Assembly: GCA_028716965.1 (NCBI GenBank)
Contig: JAQUOV010000001.1
Span: forward strand, 6,448-70,447
Reading direction: 5' to 3'
Length of the DNA stretch: 64,000 bases
Source: Candidatus Omnitrophota bacterium
Lineage (GTDB): Bacteria; Omnitrophota; Gorgyraeia; Gygaellales; Profunditerraquicolaceae
Below the pieces are notes generated by a model. That model was not told the origin of the DNA and searched no databases. It worked only from the letters and a program-made list of their open reading frames with translations. This document shows positions 47,514-63,958 of the stretch, piece by piece; within the stretch, counting starts at the first letter, position 1; each line of letters begins with the position of its first letter. Position numbers and translations under genes: made by a program.

Positions 47514-48229
47514 CCTTTTAGCGCAAGGTGCCATATTCTCCAAGCGGCCTTATTATTTTTCCAAAGCTCATTTAATTCAAGGTTATCTTTATAGGTATCC
47601 ATGCACCTCCAGAATCCCGTATGTTTGAAAGCGTTCAATTGCTTATCCTCTAATACCCGTTTAAAACTATCCCTTTCCAGTATATCCCCATTTTGGATAT
47701 ACTTAAAGATCTCCCTGCTGAAGGTAAAGAAACCTCCGTTTATCCAGTGGTCTAAAATAGGCTTTTCTTCAAAATGCGTAACTGTCTGGGTATGCGGGTT
47801 GACCCCCACAATGCCAAATTGGGAAAGAGGCCTGGTCACGGTAATTGTAGCTATTTTCTTATGTTTTTGATGAAAAGAAGCCAAATCCGGTAAATTAATA
47901 TCCGCGACACCATCTCCATAAGTAGCAAAGAAATAATCTTCCTTTATATACTTTTTAATTTTCCTGACCCTCTCTCCGGTATTGGCGTTCTCTCCCGTAT
48001 CAGCAAATGTTATATTCCATTTCTTTACGCCCGAAAAATATTCTTTTATCTTCTCGCCCTTGTAACCGAGGCATAAAATAAAATCATTAAACCCAAAATA
48101 CGAATAAATGCTCATTACGTGCCAAAGTATGGGCTTTCCCCCTATCGGCAATAAAACCTTGGGCAACTCATCCTTACCCATGCGCGTGCCCTTGCCGCCG
48201 CACAATATTACTGTCTTAATCTTCTGCAT
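47426..48229 (-). CDS. rfbF: Glucose-1-phosphate cytidylyltransferase with repeat-derived C-terminal tail
   Basis: MQKIKTVILCGGKGTRMGKDELPKVLLPIGGKPILWHVM matches RfbF. The C-terminal ...KGTPRLLELRGCSPGGENCAGVHLWANTRP is encoded by repeat family B. Confidence 0.8.
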   Translation of the reverse strand: MQKIKTVILCGGKGTRMGKDELPKVLLPIGGKPILWHVMSIYSYFGFNDFILCLGYKGEKIKEYFSGVKKWNITFADTGENANTGERVRKIKKYIKEDYFFATYGDGVADINLPDLASFHQKHKKIATITVTRPLSQFGIVGVNPHTQTVTHFEEKPILDHWINGGFFTFSREIFKYIQNGDILERDSFKRVLEDKQLNAFKHTGFWRCMDTYKDNLELNELWKNNKAAWRIWHLALKGTPRLLELRGCSPGGENCAGVHLWANTRP

Positions 48230-49259
48230 TTTTATAACAAATGATCTTCCAGCTTTTTGGCCTGGTTAATAACCTCGGCAGTATTGTAAACCATAATAGG
48301 AAACTCTCAAATCTACGGTGTTTTCTAAGAAAATAGGCTAACCTTACTTTAAACGTATATTTGCCGCCTCTATTCTTATATTTCATTATATAATCATCGG
48401 CCAAAGATGAGAATATAATTTTAACTCTCCTGAATCCACCAGCTTGCGCCCCTTTTTTCCATTCTAATAAATTATAGGCAGTATCGCCAAACCCTTTTTC
48501 TTCCATTTGCTTATAAACAGGATGTATTCTTTCCCATACCCCCCTGCCTGCCTCATTAATTAAAACAAGCTTGCCGCCGGGCCTTAAAACTCTCATGATC
48601 TCAGCAAATGCAGCTTTGAGGTCCTTGCTATGGTGCAGGACCGCTGAGCCAAATACAATATCAAAGCTATTATCCAAAAAAGGCATATTGTGCATATCTG
48701 AAAACAGCCTTTCAAAATACGCCTTTTCCACATAAAGGGATGAAACCTTTAAATAATTACTGATGTCCAAAGCTACGACACTGCACCCCTTTTGCGCGAA
48801 TTTAAAAGAGGCGTAAGAAAAACAAGCGCCTATCTCCAGTATTTTCTCCCTGCCCGTAAGGCGCAACTGCTCCATGGCAGAATAGAACCTGCCCGATGCC
48901 TCGGCAGTACTTTGGAAACTCCCGCCTTTTTTAAATAAAGATGAGCCATCCCCTTCCGGCAAAACAAGAAATTTATCCTTAAACCTTTTTATTGTTTCAT
49001 CTGTTATCTTAAACTTATCTCCTCGATCATCGGTAATATAATCATCCTCATCCATTGCCTTTCTTTCACGCAGGACGCCCGCATTAGCATTATACAGAAA
49101 ATCAATTATCCCGTCTTCAATCAAATATTCAGCAGCACAATTAGGGCATAAGAGCTTGCCGCTTCTTACCTCTAATTGATTATCAGGCCGTTTGTTCAGC
49201 TTTAAAGGGCTGTTTCCGCAGGCCGGGCACTTTAGAACCCCCAGTACTTCTTCCCTCAT
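48216..49259 (-). CDS. Class I SAM-dependent methyltransferase with N-terminal Trm112-like zinc ribbon
   Basis: CPACGNS...CPNCAAEYLIEDGIIDF, then LEIGACFS...VLHH (MTase type 11). Confidence 0.65.
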   Translation of the reverse strand: MREEVLGVLKCPACGNSPLKLNKRPDNQLEVRSGKLLCPNCAAEYLIEDGIIDFLYNANAGVLRERKAMDEDDYITDDRGDKFKITDETIKRFKDKFLVLPEGDGSSLFKKGGSFQSTAEASGRFYSAMEQLRLTGREKILEIGACFSYASFKFAQKGCSVVALDISNYLKVSSLYVEKAYFERLFSDMHNMPFLDNSFDIVFGSAVLHHSKDLKAAFAEIMRVLRPGGKLVLINEAGRGVWERIHPVYKQMEEKGFGDTAYNLLEWKKGAQAGGFRRVKIIFSSLADDYIMKYKNRGGKYTFKVRLAYFLRKHRRFESFLLWFTILPRLLTRPKSWKIICYKNAED

Positions 49260-49297
49260 TTGGCCTTCCTTAAATTAAACGTGATCGCTTATCTATT

Positions 49298-50695
49298 TTA
49301 ATATCTATTACGCAGCATATTGATAAACCTGGCTATCTTCTTGAAGTTTTTGCGCAAGCCCATCCTCAGCGCTCCGGTCTTTTCTTTTCTTTCAACCGCA
49401 GCATAATCCCAGAAATATTTATAATTAAAGGGCAGCCTTATACCGCTGTTATTAATTGCCTTGCGCCACCTGTTCAGGGTTGATATATTATGCTCCTTAG
49501 TATAATAATAAACCGAATCCGTGCTTACCCAGATCTTTTCATCAAACTCTTTATTGTTGGTCATCTGGCGGTAAATTTTAGTTCCCGGCAGGATATAAAG
49601 CATGGAAGCTCCCGGGCCATGGGTTGATTTAATATTTTTATTTAGATAGTCAACTGACTCCTTTATTGTCTCTTCAGTCTCTCCCGGGACCCCGACACAA
49701 AAAAATGCTCCGGTAGACATCCTGTCTGAATATTTCGCGCAGATATCAAAAGCATTCTTTACATCTTCCCGGGTTATCTTCTTTTCAATTGCTTGAAGCA
49801 TCTTTTCCGACAAGCTCTCTACTCCCCAGGTTATATGCTTACACCCGGATTCAGCCAATTTAGCGATCATCTCTTCGTTCACCGGCCTGACGCGGCAGGA
49901 GATTGCATACTCTATATCCTTTGCTTTCAATATTTCAGACAGCTTGATTGTCCTTTCAATCCCCAGGTTGAAAGTATCATCATAAAAGAAAAACCTTTTT
50001 GCCCCCAGGCTTTTAACATAATCCACTTCCTCTCCTACCCTTTGCGGAGAGTTCATCCTGATATTTTGCCCCCAAAAAGAAGAGGTTGAACAAAACGAAC
50101 AATTAACCGGGCATCCACGGGAGGTAATAAGATAGGCGAATCCGCTCTCTTTTATCCTCCCGGAGGCGTAAGAATAATCCGGCATCGCCAGCTCATCAAG
50201 GTCAACCACCTTTTCCGTAACGGGATTGGCCTTAAACCCATCATTGCCGTCCTTATAAACCAGGCCGCTGATATTCTTATATTCCTGTCCTGATTCCAGG
50301 GCGTTGCATAATTTATAAAACGGCTCCTCCCCGTCTGACTGGATAATAAAATCAATATAGTCGGAGAAATATTCAAACATCTGGCCGTACATAGTGGAAG
50401 GATGCACCCCTCCCAGGACGATAATAATATCCTTGCTGATCTTTTTTATGCCTTTAATAATCTTATAAGCTCCCCAGCGGTTAAAGGAATTAAAGGATAC
50501 TCCTACCACATCCGGCTTGGTTTGTTTAATAGAGCTGAAGAACGAGCTTAAGCTATCCCTAAGCTTGCAGCCGTTATAATCATAGATAAATACGCGGTGT
50601 TTTCTTTTTAAAGAAGCGGATAAATAGGCCAGCCCCAGAGGGTACCCCTTAAGATTCAACTCCTGGGATGGCGGATAAACAAGTGTTACCTTCAC
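49298..50695 (-). CDS. B12-binding radical SAM protein (class B)
   Basis: N-terminal B12-binding Rossmann region (…VVGVSFNS…IVLGGVHPS…), then CPVNCSFC (CxxxCxxC). Confidence 0.75.
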   Translation of the reverse strand: MKVTLVYPPSQELNLKGYPLGLAYLSASLKRKHRVFIYDYNGCKLRDSLSSFFSSIKQTKPDVVGVSFNSFNRWGAYKIIKGIKKISKDIIIVLGGVHPSTMYGQMFEYFSDYIDFIIQSDGEEPFYKLCNALESGQEYKNISGLVYKDGNDGFKANPVTEKVVDLDELAMPDYSYASGRIKESGFAYLITSRGCPVNCSFCSTSSFWGQNIRMNSPQRVGEEVDYVKSLGAKRFFFYDDTFNLGIERTIKLSEILKAKDIEYAISCRVRPVNEEMIAKLAESGCKHITWGVESLSEKMLQAIEKKITREDVKNAFDICAKYSDRMSTGAFFCVGVPGETEETIKESVDYLNKNIKSTHGPGASMLYILPGTKIYRQMTNNKEFDEKIWVSTDSVYYYTKEHNISTLNRWRKAINNSGIRLPFNYKYFWDYAAVERKEKTGALRMGLRKNFKKIARFINMLRNRY

Positions 50696-50712
50696 TTAAA
50701 TAAACATCCTTT

Positions 50713-51429
50713 CTATTTACTGCAAACAGCAATGAAGTCCAAACAACTGTCCAGATCTCTTTTTGTCCAAGAAAAATAGCTGCAATTTGCTTTAACGAAA
50801 AATCTTTTAACCGGATCCAGCTTATCCGGCAGGAAATTAAATAGCCCTATTTTCTTTAATCTCCTGTTGAATTTCAGGGCAATGCCCCTCCTTAAGCCAA
50901 GGATCTCAATTTTCTTAAAATGGCCTTCCAGCAGTTCTTTAAATTCACCGGCCAAATACTCTTTAACATGAAATTTATTAAAAGGTGTAACGCTGCCCGG
51001 GGATGCATCTTTTATATTGCAGGTAGAACAAATAAATACCCCGCCTGCCTTCAATAACTTACTTACGTCAGCCAAAAGCTTATGCGTATTACGTATATGC
51101 TCTATATTCTGGAAAGAACAAATAACCTGAAATTTCAGCTTTAATGAATCCAGGTTCCCTACATCCATGACCGCAAATTTCAGGTTTTCTTTATGGTATT
51201 TATTCACGGCATAATCAATAACCGCCTTATCGTAATCAATACCTAACACTTCTTTAGCGGAATCCGCCAGGAAAGCTGCCCCATACCCTTCTCCGCATCC
51301 GATATCTAAAACTTCCTTGCCGGATACAAAGTCTTTGGCAAACTTATAGGCGCAAAAATGCCGGGCAATCATCAAAGGCGTTTCTTTTTCTAAAAGTATC
51401 CTTTCACCGGTATTATTGATCTCTTTCAT
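50713..51429 (-). CDS. Class I SAM-dependent methyltransferase
   Basis: VLDIGCGEGYGAAFLA (motif I). Confidence 0.65.
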   Translation of the reverse strand: MKEINNTGERILLEKETPLMIARHFCAYKFAKDFVSGKEVLDIGCGEGYGAAFLADSAKEVLGIDYDKAVIDYAVNKYHKENLKFAVMDVGNLDSLKLKFQVICSFQNIEHIRNTHKLLADVSKLLKAGGVFICSTCNIKDASPGSVTPFNKFHVKEYLAGEFKELLEGHFKKIEILGLRRGIALKFNRRLKKIGLFNFLPDKLDPVKRFFVKANCSYFSWTKRDLDSCLDFIAVCSK

Positions 51430-53504
51430 TTTATTGAAACCTTATATATATGCGCCATTGAATTGCTGAATACGAGCTTAAACTCCTGCGGGTTAGCCGC
51501 AGCCCATTCATCTTCAATCGGGAATTTAGCCGGGTCTTCGGACTCTCTGTTGTTAAAAAACGGCTGGGCAACAAAAAGATACTCGGTCTTTTCTTTCTGC
51601 AGGTTCTCTCTCCATGCAGGATAGCTTTTCTCCCTTCTGTACAAGCCATCCGGATGGTTATAGGGAGTAATCTGCTTTTTGTTGATTGAGACATATTTAA
51701 CCCGGTTTTTCAGGCCCCTGCCGTAAAAAGGATAAAACTCCTGCCGTCCGGTATAAGCGACATAAGAGCCGCTTCCGGTTAATTCATCAAGAGCTTTCCA
51801 TGCCAATCCTATAGGGACCTGCCATCTTTCTTTCTTACTGAAGCTGGCAGGATAACGGTTAAACTCTTCTCTGTCGTATTCGGCGTTAAGGAATACGAGC
51901 GCGAAAGAAAGGCCAAGGAAACAACAGATGATAAACCATTTAAACTTCCTGCCCTCATAAAATCCCGCAACCTGTTTCTTATAAAAAGCTAATAATACGA
52001 AACAAGCCAAAGAAAGCAAAATGGATACAACCAGTTCATAACCATTCGCCAGCTCAAAAGAGGCATAAACAATTGAAATAAACCCTGCTACAGTTAAATA
52101 TCTGCTTCCCCATTTCATGCGGGCCAGAAAAATGACCGCTGTCAATAACCCCATGCTTAAATACGGAAAAACATACCTGACCGTATAAATATTGATGGAA
52201 AGAGCATATAAAACAAGCATAGTAAGCGGGGTAGCAAAAAGCAATATATAGCCGCCAAAATCTTTTATATCCTTTTTTATAATCCGGCAAAATACCAGGG
52301 GGATAAATGTTCCGGGAAGTATTAAGCCCAAAAACTGCATCCCCAGCCCCTCTTTGAAGATAATTTTTGCAAGGTCAAACCCCCATGGGGCAACCTGCAT
52401 TTTATAGTCAGCGCTGCCAAGTATCCCGGCAAAAACAGTCCTGCCGAAAATCTTCAGGTTTACCGGAAATAAAGGGTTCCCTAATAACATATAATTCTTT
52501 ATAAAGACGTAACCCCCAAGCAAGATTACCGGAAAAATGATCGCGCCTAAAAAACAAAGGGCCCTGCCAAAAGAAAGCCTGCTATTCCTGATGCCTTTAT
52601 ATATAACAAAACATACCAGCGGCATGAAAGCCGCCAGCCAGACAAGGTTGATAATCTTCGTGCCTACGAGTAGGCCTGTTGCAATCCCAAAGAGCACGGC
52701 ATACCTGAAAGTAAATTTCGACCTAAGCAATAAAAGCGTTTCAAAAACCAAAAGGAACAATACCGCGCAAATGACATCAATCTCCGAGCCTATCTTAAGC
52801 TGCTTAAAAAGATTCGGGATCAACGCCCAAAGAAAACCCGTTAATAAAGCCATCTTCCTGTTTACATCATATTTTCTTAATATTGAATAGACGGCGATAA
52901 TTCCGATAATATAAAATGGGGCTTGCCCTGCGTCTGCCAAAAATGCGTTCCTTAATGGCAGCATCAACCAGGTATAAAACAACTGGGCGTTGATAGGGTA
53001 ATAAGAAAACGAACTGGTCTCAAAGCCTGCGGGGTTCAAGATCGGGATTGAGCCAAATATCTGGAACGGATTCTCCAAATTGCCGTTTATGATCCAGGTG
53101 GCAGGAAAAGCAAGGTGCCCCTGCATGCTGCCCGGGGATTGTGTCGGAGTAATTAAATTAACATAAGTCTTTACCAGGAAGAAAGAGAAGAATACCGAAA
53201 AAGCAAGGATCAACAAGTTGCTATCCAAAACGAAACCGATTGCCGGTTTCGCAAAGCCGGCGTCCTTTTTATAAGCGCAGGAAAAATACGCGAATATAAA
53301 TATAACTGAATGCAGCAGGAAAACATTCCCAAAATACAGCCTTCCGCTAATGCCTAAAAAAAGCTCGACTAAAACAATCTGCGCGAAAAATAAGAGGAAA
53401 CAGGTTAAAACCGAGCTTCCGCACGGTTTATCCCCAAAATACCTCTTTGTAAGAAACCATGAGCTTAAAACTACTATTATTGCTTCAAGGATCAGGCAAA
53501 TCAT
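51426..53504 (-). CDS. GT-C-type integral membrane glycosyltransferase (ArnT / PMT family-like), putative
   Basis: 692 aa, more than 12 TM, with a periplasmic C-terminal domain. Overall GT39/ArnT-like organisation. Confidence 0.45.
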   Translation of the reverse strand: MICLILEAIIVVLSSWFLTKRYFGDKPCGSSVLTCFLLFFAQIVLVELFLGISGRLYFGNVFLLHSVIFIFAYFSCAYKKDAGFAKPAIGFVLDSNLLILAFSVFFSFFLVKTYVNLITPTQSPGSMQGHLAFPATWIINGNLENPFQIFGSIPILNPAGFETSSFSYYPINAQLFYTWLMLPLRNAFLADAGQAPFYIIGIIAVYSILRKYDVNRKMALLTGFLWALIPNLFKQLKIGSEIDVICAVLFLLVFETLLLLRSKFTFRYAVLFGIATGLLVGTKIINLVWLAAFMPLVCFVIYKGIRNSRLSFGRALCFLGAIIFPVILLGGYVFIKNYMLLGNPLFPVNLKIFGRTVFAGILGSADYKMQVAPWGFDLAKIIFKEGLGMQFLGLILPGTFIPLVFCRIIKKDIKDFGGYILLFATPLTMLVLYALSINIYTVRYVFPYLSMGLLTAVIFLARMKWGSRYLTVAGFISIVYASFELANGYELVVSILLSLACFVLLAFYKKQVAGFYEGRKFKWFIICCFLGLSFALVFLNAEYDREEFNRYPASFSKKERWQVPIGLAWKALDELTGSGSYVAYTGRQEFYPFYGRGLKNRVKYVSINKKQITPYNHPDGLYRREKSYPAWRENLQKEKTEYLFVAQPFFNNRESEDPAKFPIEDEWAAANPQEFKLVFSNSMAHIYKVSIK

Positions 53505-53530
53505 TTGCGTTTACCTTTCTTTGACAAGCG

Positions 53531-54970
53531 CTATTCCTTCTTATCTTTCTTCATAAGGCGCTGGTAATTTCTCAGGGCAAAATAAAAAGTACGGAAGAAA
53601 CCCCTCTTTTCTGACTTTACGCAAACTACAAAATAGACCAGGCCAAACCATAAGGTAAAGAATATATTCCGGGGCAGCCTGATTAACAGCTTGATAATAC
53701 CGAATGTCCATGGCCAGAGTACCGCGGTCTGGAAAAAACTCTGTAAATTTTGTATCTGATTTATATTCGGATGGCTGCTTAAACTTGACTTCGCGTAAAA
53801 AGAACGCGCAAGGCTGTCCATATTATAATCGCTGTTTAAATAACCCGCGTTTTTTGCGTATTCCGTAAGCTTTGTCCCGGGAAAAGGCAAAAATATGGAG
53901 CACCATGGGTAATCCGTTTTGATATCAATGTTAATCTTTACTGTGCTGATGGCTTCCTCCAGCGTTTCTCCCGGCAATCCCAGGATATTGAAAGTCCTGA
54001 ATTTCAGCCCGGCCGCATGCAGCCTTTGTGCCGCCTTATAAATTTCATCGTTAGTTAAATTCTTGTTCAATATTTTGCCGCGTATATGCTCATCTCCTGA
54101 TTCAATGCCGAAACAGGCTAATACGCATCCGCAATCCGCTAAATAAGAAGCGTATTTATCGTTCCGGCAAATTTCATCCGCCCTGACCAGACAGATAAAC
54201 GGCAGGCCTACTTTTTCTTTAAATTTCGGTAAAAATTCATACAACCATTTGCTGTTTAAACCGAATACATCATCAACAAAATACAAGATCCTTGCCTTGG
54301 CGGTATCCCTTAAATATATCGATTCTTCTATGACCTTATCTATCTGGCGGATACGCACATATTTACCTTTATCATTATAAAGCTCCCTCATTGAGTCATT
54401 AAAACAGAAGGTGCAATGCCAGGGGCAGCCGCGCGAAGCAATGATATTGCGGACACTTAAATCAATCTTGCCGTTAAGGTCTAAATAAAGCTCCCGGTCG
54501 GCAAATGGATACAGGTCTAAATCGTCATCCAAACACCTGAGTTCATTCTTGAATACCCGGTTATTTCTTGAAACCCACAGGTTCTTTAACTCTAAGTAAT
54601 CTTCATTTTTATCAAAACGGTCCATCAACTCCAAACATGCCCTCTCGCCTTCCCCTCTTACAATAATGTCTACGCCTTCCTCCTGGATAAAATCCGGGAA
54701 ATAGGTTGGGTGGGGGCCTCCGAATATATTGGCAATACCATACTCCCTCTTGACTTCTCTTGCCATATTCAGCGCCCAATGGTGGCTACCGCTCATTATA
54801 GAAAACGCCACAAAATCAGGCTTAAAAGAGCCCAGCGTGCTTCTGAAATCTTTCAGGCCGCTGCCTACGCGCATAAGGACCTTATGCCCGTGTTTCTTTA
54901 ACATGGAAGAAACATACATCGGCCCGAGGAATTCGTATTCAAGGTCCTGTAGAAATAAAAGTTTCGCCAT
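53531..54970 (-). CDS. B12-binding radical SAM protein (class B)
   Basis: B12-binding N-terminal region plus CPWHCTFC. Confidence 0.75.
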   Translation of the reverse strand: MAKLLFLQDLEYEFLGPMYVSSMLKKHGHKVLMRVGSGLKDFRSTLGSFKPDFVAFSIMSGSHHWALNMAREVKREYGIANIFGGPHPTYFPDFIQEEGVDIIVRGEGERACLELMDRFDKNEDYLELKNLWVSRNNRVFKNELRCLDDDLDLYPFADRELYLDLNGKIDLSVRNIIASRGCPWHCTFCFNDSMRELYNDKGKYVRIRQIDKVIEESIYLRDTAKARILYFVDDVFGLNSKWLYEFLPKFKEKVGLPFICLVRADEICRNDKYASYLADCGCVLACFGIESGDEHIRGKILNKNLTNDEIYKAAQRLHAAGLKFRTFNILGLPGETLEEAISTVKINIDIKTDYPWCSIFLPFPGTKLTEYAKNAGYLNSDYNMDSLARSFYAKSSLSSHPNINQIQNLQSFFQTAVLWPWTFGIIKLLIRLPRNIFFTLWFGLVYFVVCVKSEKRGFFRTFYFALRNYQRLMKKDKKE

Positions 54971-55533
54971 TAACCTATCCCTCTTGCCGTTTCGCTTTTT
55001 CTTCCAAGTAATAAGAGCTTAAGAAAAGTGGCCGCCCCTGCTATAAACAGGACCACGGGCTTACCAATAAAATATCTTCCCTCTTTACATATTAACTGCC
55101 CATTGCTAATTAGCCTGTTTATCCTCTTATCAAGAATCTCCCTGGCATTATATTTAGATAAGATTTCATCTAAGCTAAGGCCGTCTTTAGAGCGGAATAT
55201 TTCAATTAGCATCCTTATCCTTCTGGCTGTCTCACCCAACCCCACAAAATGAAAATAACAATACCCGAGAAGAACGTAGATAACCATGTTTGTAATACCG
55301 CTTGATATCCCATACCGAAACAACCTCCCGGGCAATCCTGAATACAAGATTTCAAAAATAAATAAGCTGCAAAAACCCGCGAAGAAACCCAAAAATATGG
55401 ATTTTAGCAGCCCTCTTTTTGGCGCCATACGAAAACTTAAGATCTGCGTAACCACGTTAACTAACAGGCTGAACAGGGGCAGGATGACATACACAAAAAC
55501 AACTATTTTCTCAACCCCTGCCTCCTCAACCAC
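54970..55533 (-). CDS. Small membrane protein (3-4 TM) with C-terminal soluble segment; paralogue of 55526..56044
   Basis: Hydrophobic N-terminal half; C-terminal ...LSLDEILSKYNAREILDKRINRLISNGQLICKEGRYFI. Confidence 0.3.
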   Translation of the reverse strand: MVEEAGVEKIVVFVYVILPLFSLLVNVVTQILSFRMAPKRGLLKSIFLGFFAGFCSLFIFEILYSGLPGRLFRYGISSGITNMVIYVLLGYCYFHFVGLGETARRIRMLIEIFRSKDGLSLDEILSKYNAREILDKRINRLISNGQLICKEGRYFIGKPVVLFIAGAATFLKLLLLGRKSETARGIG

Positions 55534-56044
55534 CTTTTTCTCCCTTTATTATATTTCTGTAAAATAAGAAGAGCCTGGCCATTATCAGCCCTTTAGGCAA
55601 AAGTTTATATTTCCCATCCTTGATATAAACCATTTTGTCAAAAACCATATCTCTTATTCGAGGCAGGATCAACAACTCATTATCCGCTATCCGCTCCAGT
55701 TTGGATTTATCTAATCCGGCCGCGCCTGAATCAAAAACAGCCTTGATGATTATCAATGTCGGGCTGTCTACTTCTACAGCAGGATAAGATAATATATAAG
55801 CTACAGATAACGCTGTGTATAAGAAAAACAACTGGAAGGTCTCAAAGATATTTATAGAAGAATAAATTCCCCATTTTATTAACTCCGGGTATTTAAAAAC
55901 CAGGGATGCTCCTAAAACAAAGGCCAAAGAGAAAATCATCAATAACGCGTTGACCTGCTTCTTTGGCAGGCGCAGCCTCCAAATAACCAGATGGATTAAC
56001 AGGGCGGATATAAATAATAACATCCCATATACTAATACGCTCAT
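55526..56044 (-). CDS. Small membrane protein (3 TM) with C-terminal soluble segment
   Basis: Same architecture as the adjacent gene: ...LDKSKLERIADNELLILPRIRDMVFDKMVYIKDGKYKLL. Confidence 0.3.
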   Translation of the reverse strand: MSVLVYGMLLFISALLIHLVIWRLRLPKKQVNALLMIFSLAFVLGASLVFKYPELIKWGIYSSINIFETFQLFFLYTALSVAYILSYPAVEVDSPTLIIIKAVFDSGAAGLDKSKLERIADNELLILPRIRDMVFDKMVYIKDGKYKLLPKGLIMARLFLFYRNIIKGEKGG

Positions 56045-56817: not shown

Positions 56818-56833
56818 AAGGCCTGCCTGTTAG

Positions 56834-57325
56834 TTATACCCGGATATATCCGGGCAAGCTATCGGTTATCCATTCTTTAAACAGCTTCCTAAAATTAACA
56901 TTACTGCCATAAGGGTCATAAGTCTTCATATTGACTAACTTCATCAAGACAAGATCGTCTCCGCCACAGCAATGAGAAGGCCCCAGGAATTTAAAGTAGT
57001 CTCTTGCCCCCGTAGAGATAAGCTTCACGTTTTGTTTTTGCAAGACGATGTCATTCCTTATCTGTTCAAGCGAGCGGTAAACCAGGAAATTTACAATGGA
57101 ATACACAATCGGGATTAAACCGCTCATGCTCATACCGGCCGCTATGCCCACTGCCCCCTGCTCCATGATCCCGCAATTAATAACTCTTTCGGGAAACTCG
57201 CTTTTCAATTTATCAATTGCGCCAAAACCCATATCGCAGACAAGCAGGTAATAACGGCTGTCTTTGCGGAAATATGGCAGCAATAAATCAATAATTTCTT
57301 TGCGATAATTACAAACGGCAGGCAT
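56834..57325 (-). CDS. Transketolase C-terminal-section subunit, minimal (Pyr domain only; TK_C domain absent)
   Basis: 163 aa: CDMGFG..., NCGIMEQGAVGIAAGMSMSGLIPI (Pyr-domain signature). It ends about 150 aa before a canonical subunit would. Confidence 0.7.
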   Translation of the reverse strand: MPAVCNYRKEIIDLLLPYFRKDSRYYLLVCDMGFGAIDKLKSEFPERVINCGIMEQGAVGIAAGMSMSGLIPIVYSIVNFLVYRSLEQIRNDIVLQKQNVKLISTGARDYFKFLGPSHCCGGDDLVLMKLVNMKTYDPYGSNVNFRKLFKEWITDSLPGYIRV

Positions 57326-58139
57326 AAGTCCTTCCTAATCTTAGTTCTTCAGCCATAGGTATACGAAAATGGAATTTCGGTATGCCTTCCATGCATTTTA
57401 AGCCATAGCCTTTTACTGTTTGGGCGATGATTACGCTGGGCATTTTAAAACAATTGTTGTTGGCGCATTTTAATACCCTGGACAGCTTAACTACATCATG
57501 GCCGTTACAAATAACCGGCGACAACCCAAAACCTTTTAACCTTTTAATCTTATCCCTGGTTGTGCGGTCAAGGACGTTTATGATAAAATCCATTGCCTGC
57601 AAACGGTTATCATCGATTACGATAGTAAGATTATCCACCTCATGCTTTACCGCGTACTGAAGCGCTTCCCAGGTTGTCCCTTCCTGCATCTCTCCATCAC
57701 CAATAACGCAAAAAATACGGTATTTCTTGTTTTGCAGCTTTGCCCCAAATGCCAACCCTACTGCCATGGGCAGGCCATGCCCCAGAGAACCGCATCCGGC
57801 TTCCAGCCCATAATCCAGGCGGCGTTCCATACACCCCAAAAGAGTGTTACCCGGAGAATAAAAACCCTTCCATTCTTTTTTAGGCAATACCCCCTTATCA
57901 GCAAGTATCGCATAAAGCGCGTAACAACCATGCGCCTTAGAGAAAATAAGCCTATCCCGTTTATCCCAACAAGGGTCAGACGCCTTGTAATTCATAACAC
58001 TATAATAAAGGGCCACGAGGATATCCACGCAGGATAAAGACGGAGCGATATGGCCTGCCCCATTTCTGACAGACACATCTATCACATTATGGCGGATTTG
58101 ATCGGACTTTTTTCGCAGTATTTTTCCCGTAAGATGCAT
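57309..58139 (-). CDS. Transketolase N-terminal-section subunit (TPP-binding)
   Basis: …SKAHGCYALYA…, GDGEMQEG ThDP motif. Confidence 0.75.
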   Translation of the reverse strand: MHLTGKILRKKSDQIRHNVIDVSVRNGAGHIAPSLSCVDILVALYYSVMNYKASDPCWDKRDRLIFSKAHGCYALYAILADKGVLPKKEWKGFYSPGNTLLGCMERRLDYGLEAGCGSLGHGLPMAVGLAFGAKLQNKKYRIFCVIGDGEMQEGTTWEALQYAVKHEVDNLTIVIDDNRLQAMDFIINVLDRTTRDKIKRLKGFGLSPVICNGHDVVKLSRVLKCANNNCFKMPSVIIAQTVKGYGLKCMEGIPKFHFRIPMAEELRLGRTYACRL

Positions 58140-59207
58140 TTAAATAAAATTGATGTGCTCCGAAGGGTGTGTAAGGTCCCAAAGATACCTGTTTATTTCA
58201 TCCATTCTGCAATTTACCCTGCATTCCCTCGTATTCAATTTAGATGCCGCCCAATGGTTAAGCCTGCCGTGCTTTTTACTCTCCCAAATATCCCTAAAGC
58301 TATTTTTATAGATATTCCCAAGCAAGAATTTGCTGCTCTTTAAATACATACTGCATGCCCAAACATCCCCGCCGGCATCAATATAGGCCCAGAAAGGCAG
58401 CGCTAAACAATGCTTATAATTACGCTCGGCATCATCCCATTTCTTCATTGAATACAAGCGGAATACAGCATTAAACCGCTTATCATTGAACCTCTTCAGC
58501 TTTTCAGATAAATTCAGGTATTGATCATATTTTATATCTTTAAATACCCTTGTTTTACTCAAGGGGTGTTGAGAGTATGGTTTTACCACCAAATAATCCA
58601 TGCCCATTGCCTTGGTCCTCTCCGCCAGTAAAACCACCTCTTTGTAATTATCCGGCAGGAGGATGATCTGCATACCGAGGGTGCATGGATACCCCTTATT
58701 GTTACGTACTTTAACGGCATAAGCCATGTTCTTTATCACTTTATCAAAATCTCCCGGCATTGTTCTATGGATCTTGGCGTAAGTACTGGCTTTACCGGCA
58801 TTGATACTGACTTTAATCCAGGATAAATAAGGCAAGGTCCTATCAGCTATCTTCTCATTAAATAAAACCGCGTTGGAGGTTACTGCTACATCAACGCCCG
58901 ATCTCTTGGTAAAAGCAATAATTTCCGTAATATCCTTATGCAAAAAAGGCTCCCCCTCTCCCGCATACATAATACTCTTAACTCCCAACCTGCCCATCTC
59001 TGCCAGCCTTTTTTTAAGTATGGGGGTATCTAAAAACCTCGGCTGATACTGCATAAAATCCAAACCACAATAAATACAGCGGTGGTTGCATGAACCCGAG
59101 GGGGAAATCTCCATATAGATAGGATAGACCTGCTTGCCCCTCAACCAGTCACTTACACGTTCAGGATGATACATTAATTTATGGCTGTCTATTCTATATT
59201 TATCCAT
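58140..59207 (-). CDS. Radical SAM protein with SPASM/twitch-like C-terminal domain
   Basis: SGSCNHRCIYCG (CxxxCxxC); C-terminus ...DVWACSMYLKSSKFLLGNIYKNSFRDIWES plus further Cys residues. Confidence 0.65.
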   Translation of the reverse strand: MDKYRIDSHKLMYHPERVSDWLRGKQVYPIYMEISPSGSCNHRCIYCGLDFMQYQPRFLDTPILKKRLAEMGRLGVKSIMYAGEGEPFLHKDITEIIAFTKRSGVDVAVTSNAVLFNEKIADRTLPYLSWIKVSINAGKASTYAKIHRTMPGDFDKVIKNMAYAVKVRNNKGYPCTLGMQIILLPDNYKEVVLLAERTKAMGMDYLVVKPYSQHPLSKTRVFKDIKYDQYLNLSEKLKRFNDKRFNAVFRLYSMKKWDDAERNYKHCLALPFWAYIDAGGDVWACSMYLKSSKFLLGNIYKNSFRDIWESKKHGRLNHWAASKLNTRECRVNCRMDEINRYLWDLTHPSEHINFI

Positions 59208-59269
59208 TTCTTACAAAAATCTTCATCGCCAGATAAATTGGCGGATTCATGGTTTTCTTTCGTAAAGTT

Positions 59270-59854
59270 TCAGCGGTTAGGAAAGTTATGCCTTCTTATA
59301 CCACAAAGAATATCAACGATTGAGTGGCAAAGCGCCAGGTGGGCGATCTCTACGTCCCCATAAGATAAAGAAGGGGCATAGAAATTTATATTTCCCGATC
59401 TCCTTAGCGGGTTATTGGCAGAAAAACCGGAAAGGCTAATTACAAAACAACCTGCTTTCTTGCCTTCAGACACCGCGTTCAAAATATTCCTGGATTTGCC
59501 CGAGCTGCTTATTGCGAAAAGTATGTCCCCTTTCTTAGCCAAAACACCGATCGGCGCGGAAAAAACCTTTTCGTAGCCTAAGTCGTTACTTAAACAGGTA
59601 AGCAGGCTGGAATCACTGAATGACAATGCCGGGATACTTAGGTTCTTAACAAAATCAGTAGCAATATGGCTGGCTATTGAGGCGCTTCCGCCATTACCCA
59701 CAATCATTACCTTATTGCCTTTTTTATTTTGGCGTAAGGTAACTTCGCAAGCCTGGCCGATTGCCTTCTCCAGGTTAATTTGCCTGTGTTTAAGATCAGT
59801 AGCCTGAATTTTCAGGAATAAATTACCTAACTCCAACAACGGGTTATTCTTCAT
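59270..59854 (-). CDS. gmhA: Phosphoheptose isomerase (SIS domain)
   Basis: VMIVGNGGSASIASHIATDF..., FAISSSGKSRNIL. Confidence 0.75.
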   Translation of the reverse strand: MKNNPLLELGNLFLKIQATDLKHRQINLEKAIGQACEVTLRQNKKGNKVMIVGNGGSASIASHIATDFVKNLSIPALSFSDSSLLTCLSNDLGYEKVFSAPIGVLAKKGDILFAISSSGKSRNILNAVSEGKKAGCFVISLSGFSANNPLRRSGNINFYAPSLSYGDVEIAHLALCHSIVDILCGIRRHNFPNR

Positions 59855-61386
59855 TTTAATAAAGTAGTGATGTATTTAAATAATGCCAGCGGCTCTACCG
59901 CCGAGCGGTTACCCACAATCAAAACCTTCATTGCGCCTACTGCGTTCCCGATAAAACCCGCCATTTTCATAGGATTATTTCTATAAACGCATGGCGCGGC
60001 TATTGAAAAAAACGCGTCTCCTGCTCCGATCCTGTCAACCACATCCCTGGAGAAAACCGGGATTTCGCTGAAACCCTCCTTTAATGAATAAGTAAGCGAC
60101 CCCTTATGCCCCCTGGTAACAATTATTTTCTCACAGTTTACCTTCTTGCTGACATCCGTGATCAGGTGTTCAAGGTTAGAGATTTTATCATGGCAGGCTA
60201 ATCTCATCTCGGGCTCATCAATACAGATAAAATCAGCCCGATGGATCTTGGTTACCAGGTTAAAACCAAGGTTGGCGCTATTCGTCTGCACATTAACCGC
60301 CAGAAACTTTGCTTTATCCGAAAGAAGCTTAATGATCTTTGGCGTAATCAAGCCATGGCCAAAATCAGTTAGCAGCACAAGATCAAAATCTTTAAGCGTA
60401 TTTTGTAAATATTCAACTATCGCCCCTTCTATATCTTTAGGCATAGGGGAAATATCATCCAGGTAACAAACTTCAAAAAGCTTGGTCAGGAATGCCGGGT
60501 CAACAAACCTGCGCTTAACCACGGTGGGCACATCTTTGCGGCAATAAAAATTCGGCGTGATATTGGCTTTAAGGTGGGTGGTAATAAAATCATCGTAGTG
60601 ATTTAGCTCTCCTATGCAAGTAAGCAATGTCACATCTTTGCAAAAACCGGCGATATGGTTTGCTGCCGCCAATACTCCCCCCGCAAAAACTTCATCCTTA
60701 ATAAACTTTGTGGCAATAATATTGTCCTTTTGCGACTTGCCCATCCCCGAGCAATAGTGATACTCGTCAATAATAACATCCCCTATTACCAAAACCTTAA
60801 GGTCTTCAATAGATTTAATGCGGCTTATTATGTCATTGGCTGAATATTTCTTCTTAAACTCATGGAAGAATTCCTTCGCCTCCTGGGGGTAGGGAGATAA
60901 AAATGTATTGATCAGGGAACTGGAACTGAAGGAAATTTCATCCGTAAAGTGAAGCATCCCGCCCACAGATTTTACCGCCTCTTCTTCTTCATAAATCTTA
61001 CCCGTAAGGTCATTGTTTCTATCGGCATAATCACTGCCCTTAACATAAAAATGCGGCTTAAGCAGCTTGATTATTTCAATCGCGGTCGGCCATTCATTAA
61101 TCGCCACATAATCCACGCACTCTAAAGCAGCGATACTCTCCGCGCGCAGATGATGGTTAAAAACAGGCCTGCCCGGGCCCTTGTTAACATACTCATCCTT
61201 TGTCAAAGTAACTACCAAAATATCGCCTTTCTGCCTGGCTGCCTGAAAATGCTTCAGGTGCCCGGGATGCAAGAGGTCAAAACAGCCATGGCAATGCGCT
61301 ATTTTCTTGCCTTCTTTTCTGGATTTTTCCAGTATGGAAGCAAGTTCGTCTATTGTTTTAATCTTGGCTTGGGGGTCTCTTTTCAT
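59851..61386 (-). CDS. hldE: Bifunctional heptose 1-phosphate nucleotidyltransferase / heptose 7-phosphate kinase (HldE-like, domain order inverted)
   Basis: N-terminal cytidylyltransferase-like domain (CHGCFDLLHPGHLKHF, HxGH) and C-terminal PfkB kinase domain (…DRIGAGDAF…). Confidence 0.7.
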   Translation of the reverse strand: MKRDPQAKIKTIDELASILEKSRKEGKKIAHCHGCFDLLHPGHLKHFQAARQKGDILVVTLTKDEYVNKGPGRPVFNHHLRAESIAALECVDYVAINEWPTAIEIIKLLKPHFYVKGSDYADRNNDLTGKIYEEEEAVKSVGGMLHFTDEISFSSSSLINTFLSPYPQEAKEFFHEFKKKYSANDIISRIKSIEDLKVLVIGDVIIDEYHYCSGMGKSQKDNIIATKFIKDEVFAGGVLAAANHIAGFCKDVTLLTCIGELNHYDDFITTHLKANITPNFYCRKDVPTVVKRRFVDPAFLTKLFEVCYLDDISPMPKDIEGAIVEYLQNTLKDFDLVLLTDFGHGLITPKIIKLLSDKAKFLAVNVQTNSANLGFNLVTKIHRADFICIDEPEMRLACHDKISNLEHLITDVSKKVNCEKIIVTRGHKGSLTYSLKEGFSEIPVFSRDVVDRIGAGDAFFSIAAPCVYRNNPMKMAGFIGNAVGAMKVLIVGNRSAVEPLALFKYITTLLK

Positions 61387-62372
61387 TTTGACAAATATTT
61401 AAACCAGTCTTTAGTGGCATCCTTTATTGTTTCGGGAGTCCAAACTGGCGCATCCCTCCAATATTCTATATTTTTTAGTATTTCTTCTACACCCTCTTCA
61501 AATGAAACCCCGGCCTTCCAGCCCAGAAGTTTCTTGATCTTCGCGGTATCGGCAAAGGTACAATCCGGTTCTCCGGGCCTCTTGGGGATATACTTAACTT
61601 CTCCCCCTAAGAGCTCAACCAAACGGTTAACGCTATAAGTATTGCCTGATCCAACGTTCATCACCTCTTGCTGACAATTAGAATTTGCAGCCATAAAAAA
61701 AGCATTGGCAACATCGGTGACAAATACAAAATCACGTGTTTGCCTACCATCGCCCACTACTGTGAATGGTTTATTATTCAGCTTCTGGGCTAAAAACACG
61801 CCAAAAACCGCCCCATAGGTACCGGATGTCCTTGAACGGGGTCCGTAAACATTAAAAAGCCTAAGCGATATAACCGGCAATTTATAAACATCGCCCCAAT
61901 GCAAAACCAGTTGTTCGCCCAAATATTTAGTTAACGCGTACGGGTATTGCGGCCTTATTTCCGCTGCCTCTTTTGTCGGGTAAGCATCCGGCGCCCCATA
62001 GCATGATGAAGACGCCGCGTAAACAAGCTTCTTTATTCCGTTTAAACGCGCCGCCTCAACCACATTAAACGTACCGTCAACATTAGACCTGTAATAACCT
62101 GAAGGGTTAACAATTGAAGGGACAATATCCGCCAAAGCAGCCAGATGGAAAACCTGGTCAACCCCCTTAAAATACGGCGATATTCTAACAAAATCAGTAA
62201 TATCCGCTCTTTCAATCTTGAGGTTTTTATTTTCTTTATGATGCTTCAGGTTATCCGGCCGGCCCGTAGAGAAATTATCCAAGACCAGGACAAAATACCC
62301 CTCTTCTAATAATTTATCTACCAGGTGGCTGGCAATAAACCCGGCGCCCCCGGTGACTATCGCTTTTTTCAT
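61383..62372 (-). CDS. NAD-dependent epimerase/dehydratase (UDP-glucuronate decarboxylase / 4-epimerase-like SDR)
   Basis: MKKAIVTGGAGFIASHLV..., YALTK. The ATG at 62372 is preferred over the TTG at 62378 used by the ORF track. Confidence 0.75.
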   Translation of the reverse strand: MKKAIVTGGAGFIASHLVDKLLEEGYFVLVLDNFSTGRPDNLKHHKENKNLKIERADITDFVRISPYFKGVDQVFHLAALADIVPSIVNPSGYYRSNVDGTFNVVEAARLNGIKKLVYAASSSCYGAPDAYPTKEAAEIRPQYPYALTKYLGEQLVLHWGDVYKLPVISLRLFNVYGPRSRTSGTYGAVFGVFLAQKLNNKPFTVVGDGRQTRDFVFVTDVANAFFMAANSNCQQEVMNVGSGNTYSVNRLVELLGGEVKYIPKRPGEPDCTFADTAKIKKLLGWKAGVSFEEGVEEILKNIEYWRDAPVWTPETIKDATKDWFKYLSK

Positions 62373-62396
62373 ATTCAATTATTATATCAGAAAATC

Positions 62397-62411
62397 CATA
62401 GACAGTCTATG
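62397..62411. promoter_or_regulatory. Palindromic operator-like motif CATAGACAGTCTATG
   Basis: Perfect 7-1-7 palindrome 25 nt upstream of the epimerase start, extended by GTAATT as at 32997. Confidence 0.45.
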
Positions 62412-62455
62412 TAATTGCATTAAAGCTCAATAAAAAAAACAACACCTTCAGCTGC

Positions 62456-63958
62456 TTATTTACAGATCTTTTTTAATATCATGCTAATGCACATTTTATA
62501 ATACTTTAAGAATATATTTAATCCCAATAACGACAAAGCAGGCAGTTTTTTAACCAGCTTTATAGCCGTCTCTCCGGCGTTAAACCAGCCCACATTCTTC
62601 TCAGGGCTGGCAAATATGCTCTTTATTTTATTAAAATCAAGGTAAAAAGCAAGATAGCTAAAAAGCAGGTCATTCCTTATTTCCGTTTCAGAACTTCCGG
62701 CTGGAACATATGAAAATGGGATCTCTTTAAAAGGGTATTCAATAAAAGTGGATACCGAATAGAAATTATCATATAACCCTGTGACTTTTAACCCCCCGTC
62801 GCGTTTAGCCATTTCATACAACTCCGTGCCCGGATACGGTGTAGCATTATTATACCTGACCATATCCAGCTTTAATTCCTTGCTTAATTTCAAACAATTC
62901 ATTCTGTCTTTATGCGTTTCCGTGGGAAAACCGTATATAAAAGTAGCGCTTACGTGAAAGCCGATTTGCTTTGCCATTTTTACCGCCTCAATGCAGCGCG
63001 CTACCGTCTCATCTTTCTTGATAAGCTTCATAATATCCTCCGAAGCAGTCTCAAGCCCGAAAAAAACGCTCTTAAACCCCGCCTCAAACAAATCCTTCAA
63101 TAATTTAAAGTTGGCATTATCGCCCCTGGCCTGAAAACTAAAGGTAAGCTTCTTATCAAGCCCGGCTCTTTTTATTTCATCTAAAAGCTCATATACCCGG
63201 GCCTGATTTACCAATAAATTATCATCTAAAAACTGGATGTTCCGCTTCCCTTGCTTATTTATCAAATATTGATTATATACCCAATCCACATCGCGCATGA
63301 TTTTCTTCGCGGAAGTATACCTGTATTTCTTGCCGGTAGTTACCCGGTTACTGCAAAATATACAGCGATGGGGGCAGCCGCGCGAACTGACCACAAAACC
63401 TAAATCATAGCGCTCGGATTTAAAAAGATGGTACGGAAAATCAGGAAGGCTGTCTAAATCAATGGGGTCAAGGGAAATCTTATTATGTATTATAACCCCG
63501 TCTTTCCTGTAAGATAAGCCTTCCACCTGCCTGACATCCCCGCCCCCCTTAACGCGCCTATAAAATTCAACCAGTTCCCTTTCCCCTTCTCCTCTTATAA
63601 CATAATCTATATGTTTATAGGATAAGGCTTCTTCAGGCAAAGCCGTAGGATGAATCCCGCCAAATAAAATTATAGAATCAGGGAATAACTTTTTTAACTC
63701 CCGTGAAACATGGATAGCGCTTTTAAAAGAAGCAGTTAGAACGCTAAAGGCAAATATATACGGCCGCTTAAGGCCTTTTACATATTCATTTATCTTAGCT
63801 ATAACATTATCCTCTATCTGCTCATCAATGAATTTTACTTTAATATTTTGCTGTTCAGCAAAAGCAAGCAGATAACCTGGGCCGATAGGGACAAATATCG
63901 GCAAGAAGGGCTGGAATATTTTTAAGGCGTCTTTCGGAGAGGAATTGATTAAGATCAT
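62456..63958 (-). CDS. B12-binding radical SAM protein (class B)
   Basis: B12-binding N-terminal region; CPHRCIFC. Confidence 0.75.
   Translation of the reverse strand: MILINSSPKDALKIFQPFLPIFVPIGPGYLLAFAEQQNIKVKFIDEQIEDNVIAKINEYVKGLKRPYIFAFSVLTASFKSAIHVSRELKKLFPDSIILFGGIHPTALPEEALSYKHIDYVIRGEGERELVEFYRRVKGGGDVRQVEGLSYRKDGVIIHNKISLDPIDLDSLPDFPYHLFKSERYDLGFVVSSRGCPHRCIFCSNRVTTGKKYRYTSAKKIMRDVDWVYNQYLINKQGKRNIQFLDDNLLVNQARVYELLDEIKRAGLDKKLTFSFQARGDNANFKLLKDLFEAGFKSVFFGLETASEDIMKLIKKDETVARCIEAVKMAKQIGFHVSATFIYGFPTETHKDRMNCLKLSKELKLDMVRYNNATPYPGTELYEMAKRDGGLKVTGLYDNFYSVSTFIEYPFKEIPFSYVPAGSSETEIRNDLLFSYLAFYLDFNKIKSIFASPEKNVGWFNAGETAIKLVKKLPALSLLGLNIFLKYYKMCISMILKKICK

Follow-up and report, generated by a model that had tools for sequence, protein, structure and literature searches.

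A twitch/SPASM radical-SAM enzyme and its thiamine-enzyme partner in a glycan operon of Omnitrophota: a recurrent module that probably makes an undescribed sugar

The stretch of DNA treated here (the window) comprises 64,000 nucleotides (nt) of contig JAQUOV010000001.1 (positions 6,448 to 70,447) from a Candidatus Omnitrophota bacterium, and its interval 48216-63958 carries a run of genes that reads as part of an envelope-glycan operon (Table 1). The key to this locus is a twitch/SPASM radical S-adenosylmethionine (radical-SAM) enzyme of 355 amino acids (aa), and not the three radical-SAM genes with a cobalamin (B12)-binding domain in the same run (B12a, B12b, and B12c). Together with a two-subunit thiamine enzyme encoded next to it, it belongs to a real and uncharacterised module for nucleotide-sugar tailoring that feeds a lipid-carrier glycan-modification system. 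The heart of the operon would be this self-contained, horizontally mobile sugar-modification module, in the order: an epimerase-like short-chain dehydrogenase/reductase (SDR), a domain-swapped HldE-like protein, a GmhA-like isomerase, the twitch/SPASM radical-SAM enzyme, the two-subunit thiamine enzyme, an ArnC/GtrB-like glycosyltransferase of family 2 (GT2), and two small membrane proteins (mem2 and mem1). Probably, this module makes a previously undescribed sugar, and there is a real chance that its chemistry is new. A first-pass annotation had described the interval as a glycan locus with heptose-type sugar activation and unusual radical-SAM and thiamine chemistry, and in this outline the description is supported.

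The module recurs widely. Scanning one genome for each species turned up 422 with a relative of the radical-SAM enzyme, and the best 80 of these (58-81% identity) were taken for comparison; open reading frames (ORFs) were extracted from all loci and compared with the window proteins and a few added references. Counts given below refer to these 80 loci, except for one table that took in 83. The bacterial carriers among the best 80 are found in Omnitrophota, Planctomycetota including anammox lineages, Nitrospirota, Delta-/Thermodesulfobacteriota, Elusimicrobia, Patescibacteria, several candidate phyla, and Actinomycetota, and the archaeal carriers in Methanoperedens, Undinarchaeota, Nanoarchaeia, and Hydrothermarchaeota, these labels being those of metagenome-assembled genomes (MAGs). 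The two-subunit thiamine enzyme is encoded directly downstream of the radical-SAM gene in 56 loci (42 with a transketolase-like and 14 with a pyruvate dehydrogenase (PDH)-E1-alpha-like protein), 7 further loci stop at a contig edge, and 69 have a thiamine enzyme somewhere in the locus. Genes for the HldE-like protein and for the GmhA-like isomerase, which belongs to the SIS family, are both present in 45 loci, with the SIS gene directly upstream of the radical-SAM gene in 42; an HldE-like gene or a gene like those of glycosyltransferase family 9 (GT9) stands alongside the radical-SAM gene in 67, and GT2 homologs occur in 42. From these counts, the conserved entity is the radical-SAM/thiamine pair within a module of heptose-type activation and GT2, and the near-obligate pairing indicates a carbon-carbon bond-forming step on an undescribed sugar. 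The core gene arrangement is far beyond chance, as its order recurs in dozens of unrelated genomes. B12 radical-SAM genes of any kind are found in 37 loci and missing from 43, and three or more occur in only 3; these and the methyltransferase genes are variable, lineage-specific additions.

The radical-SAM enzyme has the motif CNHRCIYC and four further invariant cysteines (Cys267, 285, 329, and 333). It matches the SPASM model PF13186 at 35.6 bits against 21.5, in agreement with its earlier naming as a SPASM/twitch protein, but the seven-cysteine SPASM motif for two auxiliary clusters is not found; with only four extra cysteines invariant, a single auxiliary cluster of the twitch-like kind is indicated, and the name narrows accordingly. 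None of the top 120 database matches falls below 63% identity, and nearly all have a length of exactly 355 aa. No NCBIfam equivalog model is reached, and the best PDB match by sequence is BlsE (1e-7). The fold neighbours of a model built from a shallow 12-sequence alignment (pLDDT 67.6) are DesII, SuiB, SkfB, viperin, anSME, and BlsE, and among the nearest solved relatives by sequence and fold are anSME, which oxidises alcohols to aldehydes, and BlsE, DesII, and viperin, which work on nucleotide sugars or nucleotides. Like DesII, BlsE, BtrN, AprD4, and anSME, which turn alcohols or diols into carbonyls, the window enzyme combines a radical-SAM core with a C-terminal auxiliary-cluster domain; unlike them, it reaches no family model, its identity to them is only 15-19%, and its pairing with a thiamine enzyme is seen in none of them.

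Both subunits of the thiamine enzyme have their closest solved relative in the split transketolase of Carboxydothermus hydrogenoformans (6yak for the large subunit, 3e-45; 6yaj for the small one, 2e-13, aligned to chain C residues 69-190), whose two-chain arrangement they share. The cassette proteins were aligned with this enzyme and residues are given in Escherichia coli numbering; the E. coli TktA sequence was a secondary guide only, and its misaligned Arg520 position was ignored. In contrast to the C. hydrogenoformans enzyme, the second chain in the window has half the length: it consists of Transket_pyr only, stops right after the arginine of a YIR motif aligned with Arg520, and has no third transketolase domain (PF02780, Transketolase_C). 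We know of no described counterpart of a transketolase-like form with a Pyr-only subunit of 163 aa. The cofactor site is intact, as the GDG...N motif, Glu411, His26, His66, His261, and His473 are kept in all cassette homologs as in the window protein; the large subunit of the window also keeps Asp155 and Asn185, and the small one Arg520. The substrate pocket differs from that of canonical transketolase. In the latter, His461 binds the substrate phosphate, Asp469 contacts the acceptor alpha-hydroxyl, and His100 contacts the donor C1 hydroxyl, while the window has Gly, Leu, and Cys at the three positions, respectively. In the cassette pairs that follow the radical-SAM gene, His461 is replaced by Gly and Asp469 by Leu, Gln, or Ala in every case except locus L067, whose two transketolase-like pairs show the sole departures, one Ala at 461 and one Asp at 469. 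His100 is Cys in the short-subunit type, to which the window belongs, and is kept only in the long-subunit type. Engineered changes at 461 and 469 shift E. coli transketolase to non-phosphorylated and non-hydroxylated aldehydes.

Furthermore, the transketolase-like pair is replaced in 15 loci by a pair close to genuine PDH E1 alpha and beta subunits by Pfam. In NCBIfam, the beta subunit passes the cut-off of the PDH-E1-beta subfamily model (340.6 against 321; alpha, 334.6 against 393.85), by which pyruvate is indicated as a C2 donor. Because E1 cannot make sedoheptulose-7-phosphate, the job shared by the two kinds of enzyme is the delivery of a thiamine-bound C2 unit. From the sequences, two-carbon transfer onto a sugar carbonyl would be the more likely function of the cassette enzyme, and the reading of the pair as a device for two-carbon branching or extension, proposed earlier, holds up. 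The same annotation had also let the transketolase supply sedoheptulose 7-phosphate. In this explanation, a complete ADP-heptose pathway draws its sedoheptulose-7-phosphate from the split transketolase, and the three B12 radical-SAM enzymes then place many C-methyl groups on the heptose. The transketolase, GmhA-like, HldE-like, GmhB-like, and GT9 genes are indeed all present, the B12-binding radical-SAM domains are intact, and cassette lineages such as archaea may be without a pentose-phosphate transketolase. Even so, it is improbable: the pocket lacks His461 and Asp469, and in the short type also His100; the interchangeable E1 pairs could not do the job; and the thiamine gene lies between the radical-SAM and GT2 genes, once with its beta part fused to GT2, and not before the isomerase. 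The frequent lack of B12 genes, their failure to match any methyltransferase subfamily, and the relation of B12b to a dehydratase (see below) tell against its second half. A role of the pair in central metabolism was rejected on the pocket residues and the cassette-bound synteny; no second transketolase, HldE, or SIS gene is present within the 64-kb window.

Thiamine enzymes are known from other sugar clusters. YerE of the yersiniose pathway, AviB1/AviB2, and AlmDI/DII, some of them PDH-E1-like alpha/beta enzymes, add C2 from pyruvate to a keto-sugar whose carbonyl is made by an NAD-dependent 4,6-dehydratase. In the window, by contrast, a radical-SAM enzyme is the partner encoded upstream, and the SDR has an epimerase-like sequence. 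The SDR was considered as a 4,6-dehydratase giving the keto-sugar, and this is unlikely, as it reads SSSCYG at a position where dehydratases have an acidic residue.

Three unusual loci fit an order of events from a carbonyl-making step through C2 transfer to lipid loading. In L087, from a Patescibacteria-labelled MAG (DATJPV010000045.1, 12165-13991), an E1-beta-like protein (Transket_pyr and Transketolase_C) is fused with a GT2 domain in a single protein of 608 aa. In L085 (JGI Ga0265297_10000908, 10116-13382), an SDR and two DegT aminotransferases fill the radical-SAM slot between the SIS gene and the transketolase-like pair; these are enzymes that make and use keto-sugars, and the locus still keeps the transketolase-like pair, GT2, a second SPASM radical-SAM gene, and one B12 radical-SAM gene. 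In L086, the module is isolated among unrelated housekeeping genes with no GT9 gene nearby.

The genes upstream of the radical-SAM gene are of the four enzyme types of the ADP-L-glycero-D-manno-heptose pathway (GmhA, HldE, GmhB, and HldD) when the GmhB-like gene farther downstream is included, and the GmhA phosphate loop and both HldE domains are present, with GmhB-like and GT9 genes nearby. They differ from that pathway in the reversed HldE order, in scores that are all below cut-offs, and in the radical-SAM and thiamine genes inserted in the operon. The HldE-like protein has its nucleotidyltransferase at the N-terminus and its PfkB kinase at the C-terminus; rfaE_dom_II is matched at residues 19-160 (108.8 bits against 181.5), rfaE_dom_I at 190-493 (101.9 against 345), and the whole-protein model NF008454 at 155 against 521, so that the protein falls outside HldE proper. 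The order PF01467-then-PF00294 at ~511 aa is found in 120 of the 120 homologs listed. The isomerase does not reach the GmhA model TIGR00441 (97.7 bits against 209.45), and its best PDB match is Burkholderia GmhA (4e-25); in the alignment of the two, the SSSGKS phosphate loop is kept, and His, Asp (for Glu), Glu, and His fall at the four positions for metal binding and catalysis, where they are plausible residues. The SDR scores 181 against 262 for GalE and 119 against 275 for heptose_epim in NCBIfam, and in many loci its orthologs (63-86% identity) are the next gene upstream of HldE-like. The GmhB-like protein scores 171.3 against 178 for its model. In the whole operon, the radical-SAM, HldE-like, SIS, and B12 proteins reach no NCBIfam family model at cut-off. 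Thus, the "complete ADP-heptose pathway" of the first-pass annotation was overstated: heptose-type enzyme genes, the GmhB-like gene, and the two GT9 genes are present as claimed, but the GmhA-like, HldE-like, and SDR proteins are under equivalog cut-offs, the HldE domains are swapped, and the closest relative of the whole locus does without the HldE-like and SIS genes.

On the downstream side, the genes resemble the Arn (ArnC/ArnT/ArnE-F) and Gtr (GtrB/GtrA/GtrC) systems, in which a GT2 loads polyprenyl phosphate, small membrane proteins flip the product, and a glycosyltransferase of the GT-C fold attaches the sugar outside the cytoplasmic membrane. The GT2 of the window belongs to the same group by sequence, its top PDB matches being ArnC (1.3e-10), GtrB (1.4e-10), and DPMS (3.4e-9), and the two small membrane proteins are encoded between it and a 692-aa protein with the ArnT/PglB/PMT fold. 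This last protein has no Pfam or NCBIfam match, among its 120 listed homologs, PF13231 is found in only 1, and all those with a named source belong to Omnitrophota. Its AlphaFold2 (AF2) model from a 30-sequence alignment is good (pLDDT 86.6, pTM 0.91), and 19 of the top 20 Foldseek matches in the PDB, including all 12 with E<=0.001, are GT-C proteins (probability 0.98-1.0, TM 0.3-0.5), among them STT3/PglB, ArnT, Pmt4, Emb, and PimE. The multi-helix GT-C fold is therefore recognized, and the earlier GT-C call, which no family model supports, stands on this fold match. The proteins mem1 and mem2 likewise have no Pfam or NCBIfam match; homologs of the trio GT2-mem2-mem1 are found together in 8 of the tabulated loci, and mem1/mem2 might supply a membrane anchor for the GT2. 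By analogy, GT2, mem2/mem1, and the GT-C protein would reproduce the logic of the Arn and Gtr systems, from which they differ in the sugar made upstream, in a GT2 without predicted helices, in small membrane proteins without a match among known flippase families, and in a GT-C protein without a Pfam model.

From these parts, a pathway can be proposed. First, a ketose phosphate of the sedoheptulose-7-phosphate type would be isomerised, phosphorylated, and nucleotide-activated as in the ADP-heptose route, for which the GmhB-like phosphatase would serve. Second, the radical-SAM enzyme, acting either as a radical oxidase or as a diol dehydratase, would give the activated sugar a carbonyl, probably an aldehyde without an adjacent hydroxyl or phosphate. 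Third, the thiamine enzyme would take a C2 unit from a donor, either pyruvate or a ketol, and join it to this carbonyl, giving a chain-extended or branched higher sugar. Fourth, this sugar would be loaded on polyprenyl phosphate by the GT2, and fifth, it would be flipped and then attached by the GT-C protein to lipopolysaccharide (LPS) or another envelope glycan. Further decoration of the sugar, possibly methylation, would be the task of two SAM methyltransferases and three divergent B12 radical-SAM enzymes, which the module would have gained in this lineage. Our confidence in this overall scheme, from the radical-SAM carbonyl on a heptose-type nucleotide sugar to the decoration by the B12 enzymes and methyltransferases, is evenly balanced. 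In its most specific form, the side chain of a nucleotide-heptose is turned into an aldehyde by the twitch enzyme and lengthened by two carbons by the thiamine enzyme, and the resulting nine-carbon sugar or C2-branched heptose is exported on polyprenyl phosphate and attached at the surface, by a mobile module shared across many bacterial phyla and archaea. With all of these details, we regard it as unlikely; if it holds, carbohydrate biosynthesis would have its first tandem of a radical-SAM and a thiamine enzyme.

Several observations weigh against the scheme. We infer all of its chemistry, and each chemical step is held with less confidence than the whole. The fold neighbours of the radical-SAM enzyme are weak evidence, since the model behind them is only moderate, and the MAG taxon labels may be imprecise. 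In the 258-aa GT2, no hydrophobic segment is predicted, so that membrane helices of its own at the C-terminus are not found. GmhB is adjacent in only 4 of 83 loci tabulated. L006, the closest relative of the whole locus (~80% identity), has otherwise the full window set, but its SDR gene is followed by the radical-SAM gene with no HldE-like and SIS genes in between, and loci of the Deltaproteobacteria type have radical-SAM, E1, GT2, and B12 genes, again without HldE-like and SIS. From these two cases, the radical-SAM/thiamine pair may act on a substrate made otherwise. They also suit a different explanation with two linked but independent functions, in which the HldE-like, GmhA-like, SDR, and GmhB proteins are a housekeeping supply of ADP-heptose for GT9 heptosyltransferases of the LPS core, and the radical-SAM, thiamine, GT2, and GT-C proteins modify another, common sugar, for example a UDP- or CDP-hexose or a lipid-linked one. 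The GT9 genes and GmhB in the same window agree with it, as do the RfbF-like and CDP-glucose-dehydratase-like genes directly downstream. We find it somewhat unlikely, given that the SIS gene so often adjoins the radical-SAM gene and is accompanied by the HldE-like gene, that the full set is also found in archaea and Patescibacteria, which have no LPS core, that the module of L086 stands apart from any GT9 gene, and that the HldE-like protein is a distinct domain-swapped family under the HldE cut-offs. Moreover, loci without HldE-like usually have a GT9-like gene, by which the heptose link remains.

One cultured example is available. A search of plasmids by tblastn found a homolog of the radical-SAM enzyme (C3Y92_RS20620; 54% identity) on plasmid pDCAR1 of Solidesulfovibrio carbinolicus DSM 3852 (L084; NZ_CP026539.1, 67846-96907), in the order HldE-like (42%), hypothetical, SIS, radical-SAM, B12 radical-SAM, and B12 radical-SAM, with a third B12 radical-SAM gene nearby. 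The combination of several B12 radical-SAM genes with the module is thus not unique to the window. The neighbours are pseB, pseF, and NeuB-family genes of the pseudaminic/neuraminic-acid type, an ATP-grasp protein, and a split transketolase with FabG, and the island may serve nonulosonic-acid or flagellin glycosylation. Two features of this plasmid also count against the proposed scheme: no thiamine enzyme follows the radical-SAM gene, and the nearby split transketolase, next to FabG, has the canonical His461 and Asp469. Because of these residues and its position on the other strand, this transketolase is not of the cassette type.

Other recurrent genes were noted in the surveyed loci. A second SPASM radical-SAM enzyme of ~367 aa, 73-77% conserved between phyla, is encoded in 30 of 83 loci (for example, L008 12347-13510 and L086 13985-15088); it is not in the window, where B12 radical-SAM genes are found instead. 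In loci without HldE-like and SIS, a GT9-like gene (~309 aa) and a small radical-SAM gene (285-295 aa) recur flanking the radical-SAM/thiamine pair (L075, L059, L079, L081, and L083, and the anammox-type L025, L027, L028, and L030). The stand-alone module of L086 is closed by a small ferredoxin gene (16826-17014), a possible electron donor for radical-SAM enzymes.

As for the three B12 radical-SAM proteins of the window, each has PF02310 and PF04055 above the gathering scores together with a CX3CX2C motif, as in class B enzymes, and their mutual identity is 27-29%. Their placement in a characterised subfamily failed, all scores being far below the cut-offs. B12c is best matched by HpnJ (158 against 577) and BchE (147 against 481), B12a by ApyD (150 against 750), PhpK (145 against 600), and a ladderane-type lipid B12 radical-SAM model (141 against 360), and B12b partially by HpnJ, below its cut-off. 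None of the three reaches the models for the characterised class B methyltransferase subfamilies, namely TsrM (68.7 against 500), HpnR (98 against 650), PhpK, KedN5, Mmp10, and the C-methyltransferases of ribosomally synthesized and post-translationally modified peptides. In the PDB, B12b is closest to AprD4 (7.6e-15), which is a dehydratase rather than a methylase, and B12c to 9ccb and TokK. B12b has orthologs of 58-86% identity adjoining SPASM or thiamine genes in L006, L018, and L056 and relatives of ~30% identity after GT2 in the Deltaproteobacteria-type loci, by which synteny it is the B12 enzyme most tied to the core. C-methylation is a plausible, putative activity of the B12 proteins. 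The methyltransferase MT2 matches no NCBIfam equivalog.

The partial matches of the B12 proteins to HpnJ, HpnR, BchE, and the ladderane-type model, and a borderline hydrophobic segment at the C-terminus of B12b (435-453), could speak for a role outside glycans, such as the modification of a membrane lipid (hopanoid-, ladderane-, or ether-lipid-like) or of a cofactor. A salvage of 5-deoxyribose, a by-product of radical-SAM enzymes, to 7-deoxysedoheptulose by the transketolase belongs to the same group of explanations, as a transketolase-dependent formation of 7-deoxysedoheptulose from 5-deoxyribose has been described (PMC8102628). All of these are very improbable, and such readings are already largely refuted by the context: the lipid-family scores are far below cut-offs, and every locus examined is uniformly of glycan type, with GT2, GT-C, GT9, SDRs, DegT, nucleotidyltransferases, and Wzy_C. 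For the salvage role in particular, the phosphate-binding loop kept in the SIS protein would be useless for a 7-deoxy sugar, and together with the displacement by E1 and the fusion to GT2 it led us to reject the transketolase as a 5-deoxyribose salvage enzyme.

A full-text literature search found no paper describing the module, though work in subscription journals may exist, and the paper on the Kuenenia S-layer glycan has 0 occurrences of "radical SAM." A radical-SAM protein of 355 aa that is conserved at ~60% identity from Omnitrophota to Methanoperedens is without an assigned function or an NCBIfam family model. If the scheme is right, there would be a new monosaccharide in the envelope chemistry of many uncultured lineages, and radical-SAM chemistry would have a new use, as the source of the carbonyl that a thiamine carboligase takes as acceptor. 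The small thiamine enzyme would be a natural "minimal" transketolase scaffold with pocket changes like those that engineers introduce. With its plasmid-borne module, the sulfate reducer S. carbinolicus opens bench access to part of the question.

The 15 genes of the interval exist where the first-pass annotation had put them, all on the minus strand, and its domain calls (three B12 radical-SAM, SPASM radical-SAM, two methyltransferases, split transketolase, GT2, SIS, and HldE-like) are borne out by Pfam above gathering scores; NCBIfam scores were compared with the cut-off of each model throughout. By the ORF map, the genes form one tight operon in which neighbours overlap or lie no more than 77 nt apart. 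The single co-oriented block described earlier was right as an operon but was drawn too short, as the glycan genes reach downstream to ~37505 and the upstream end is cut by the window end at 64000; B12c is the first visible gene, and the window ends 42 nt upstream of it. Past 33 kb, all substantial ORFs of the window are encoded on the minus strand, and the first 33 kb are housekeeping genes (TrpE, HisD, AlaRS, RecA, SMC, ETF, and acyl-CoA dehydrogenase). The interval would form the upstream half of a single long envelope-glycan operon on the minus strand of an Omnitrophota chromosome, which is held at the same middling confidence as the scheme of which it is part.

Table 1. Features of the glycan operon in the window, from the upstream end (positions of the window).
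Feature	Position	Strand	Basis
B12-binding radical-SAM (B12c)	62456..63958	-	PF02310 67.8 bits, PF04055 85.7 bits, CPHRCIFC motif
Extended SDR, epimerase-like (GalE/HldD type rather than 4,6-dehydratase)	61383..62378	-	Pfam Epimerase 1.6e-60
Domain-swapped HldE-like bifunctional protein	59851..61386	-	CTP_transf_like + PfkB
GmhA-like SIS phosphosugar isomerase	59270..59854	-	Pfam SIS
Twitch/SPASM radical-SAM enzyme, 355 aa, anchor of the conserved module	58140..59207	-	PF04055 + PF13186
Transketolase-like thiamine-diphosphate subunit (PP domain), non-canonical	57309..58139	-	Transketolase_N 3.1e-28
Minimal Pyr-domain thiamine subunit, 163 aa	56834..57325	-	Transket_pyr only
GT2, polyprenyl-phosphate sugar synthase-like (ArnC/GtrB/DPMS type), 258 aa	56041..56817	-	PF00535
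Small membrane protein (mem2)	55526..56044	-	3 hydrophobic segments + soluble tail
Small membrane protein (mem1)	54970..55533	-	size and layout like mem2 (likeness by eye only)
B12-binding radical-SAM (B12b)	53531..54970	-	Pfam B12-binding + Radical_SAM
GT-C-fold membrane glycosyltransferase, 692 aa	51426..53504	-	predicted fold
Class I SAM methyltransferase (MT2)	50713..51429	-	Pfam Methyltransf_31/23/25/11
B12-binding radical-SAM (B12a)	49298..50695	-	Pfam B12-binding + Radical_SAM
Class I SAM methyltransferase with N-terminal Trm112-like zinc ribbon (MT1z)	48216..49259	-	Methyltransf_11 1.5e-19; Trm112p 25.1 bits against cut-off 22
Downstream continuation of the glycan block	37505..48229	-	Pfam + NCBIfam

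The downstream continuation consists of RfbF-like, CDP-glucose 4,6-dehydratase-like, GT2, Wzy_C/O-antigen-ligase-like, polysaccharide deacetylase, GT9, ManC, GT9, DegT aminotransferase, GT2, and GmhB-like phosphatase genes, with the GT9 genes at 40057 and 42618 and the GmhB-like gene at 37505. In its first ORF (47426-48229, minus strand), which is glucose-1-phosphate cytidylyltransferase-like, the family model is matched in two stretches at 242 against a cut-off of 300, and an odd C-terminal tail of 30 residues overlaps the next gene; the gene may be degraded or its end shifted. Over the Wzy_C/O-antigen-ligase-like gene (44001-46000), the GC content falls to 0.37 from ~0.43-0.46 elsewhere, a typical sign of horizontal exchange in polymerase or ligase genes. 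Between the glycan block and priA (34423-36408), an ORF for an MGDG-synthase-like glycosyltransferase (36317-37414, minus strand) overlaps priA by 92 nt, and one of the two genes may have had its start called too far upstream. Farther down, a gene for a 23S rRNA-intervening-sequence protein, a bAvd-like four-helix bundle, lies between fmt and priA (34033-34401, minus strand), and an ORF of 372 aa without a Pfam match is found between recA and a GGDEF gene (13034-14152, minus strand).

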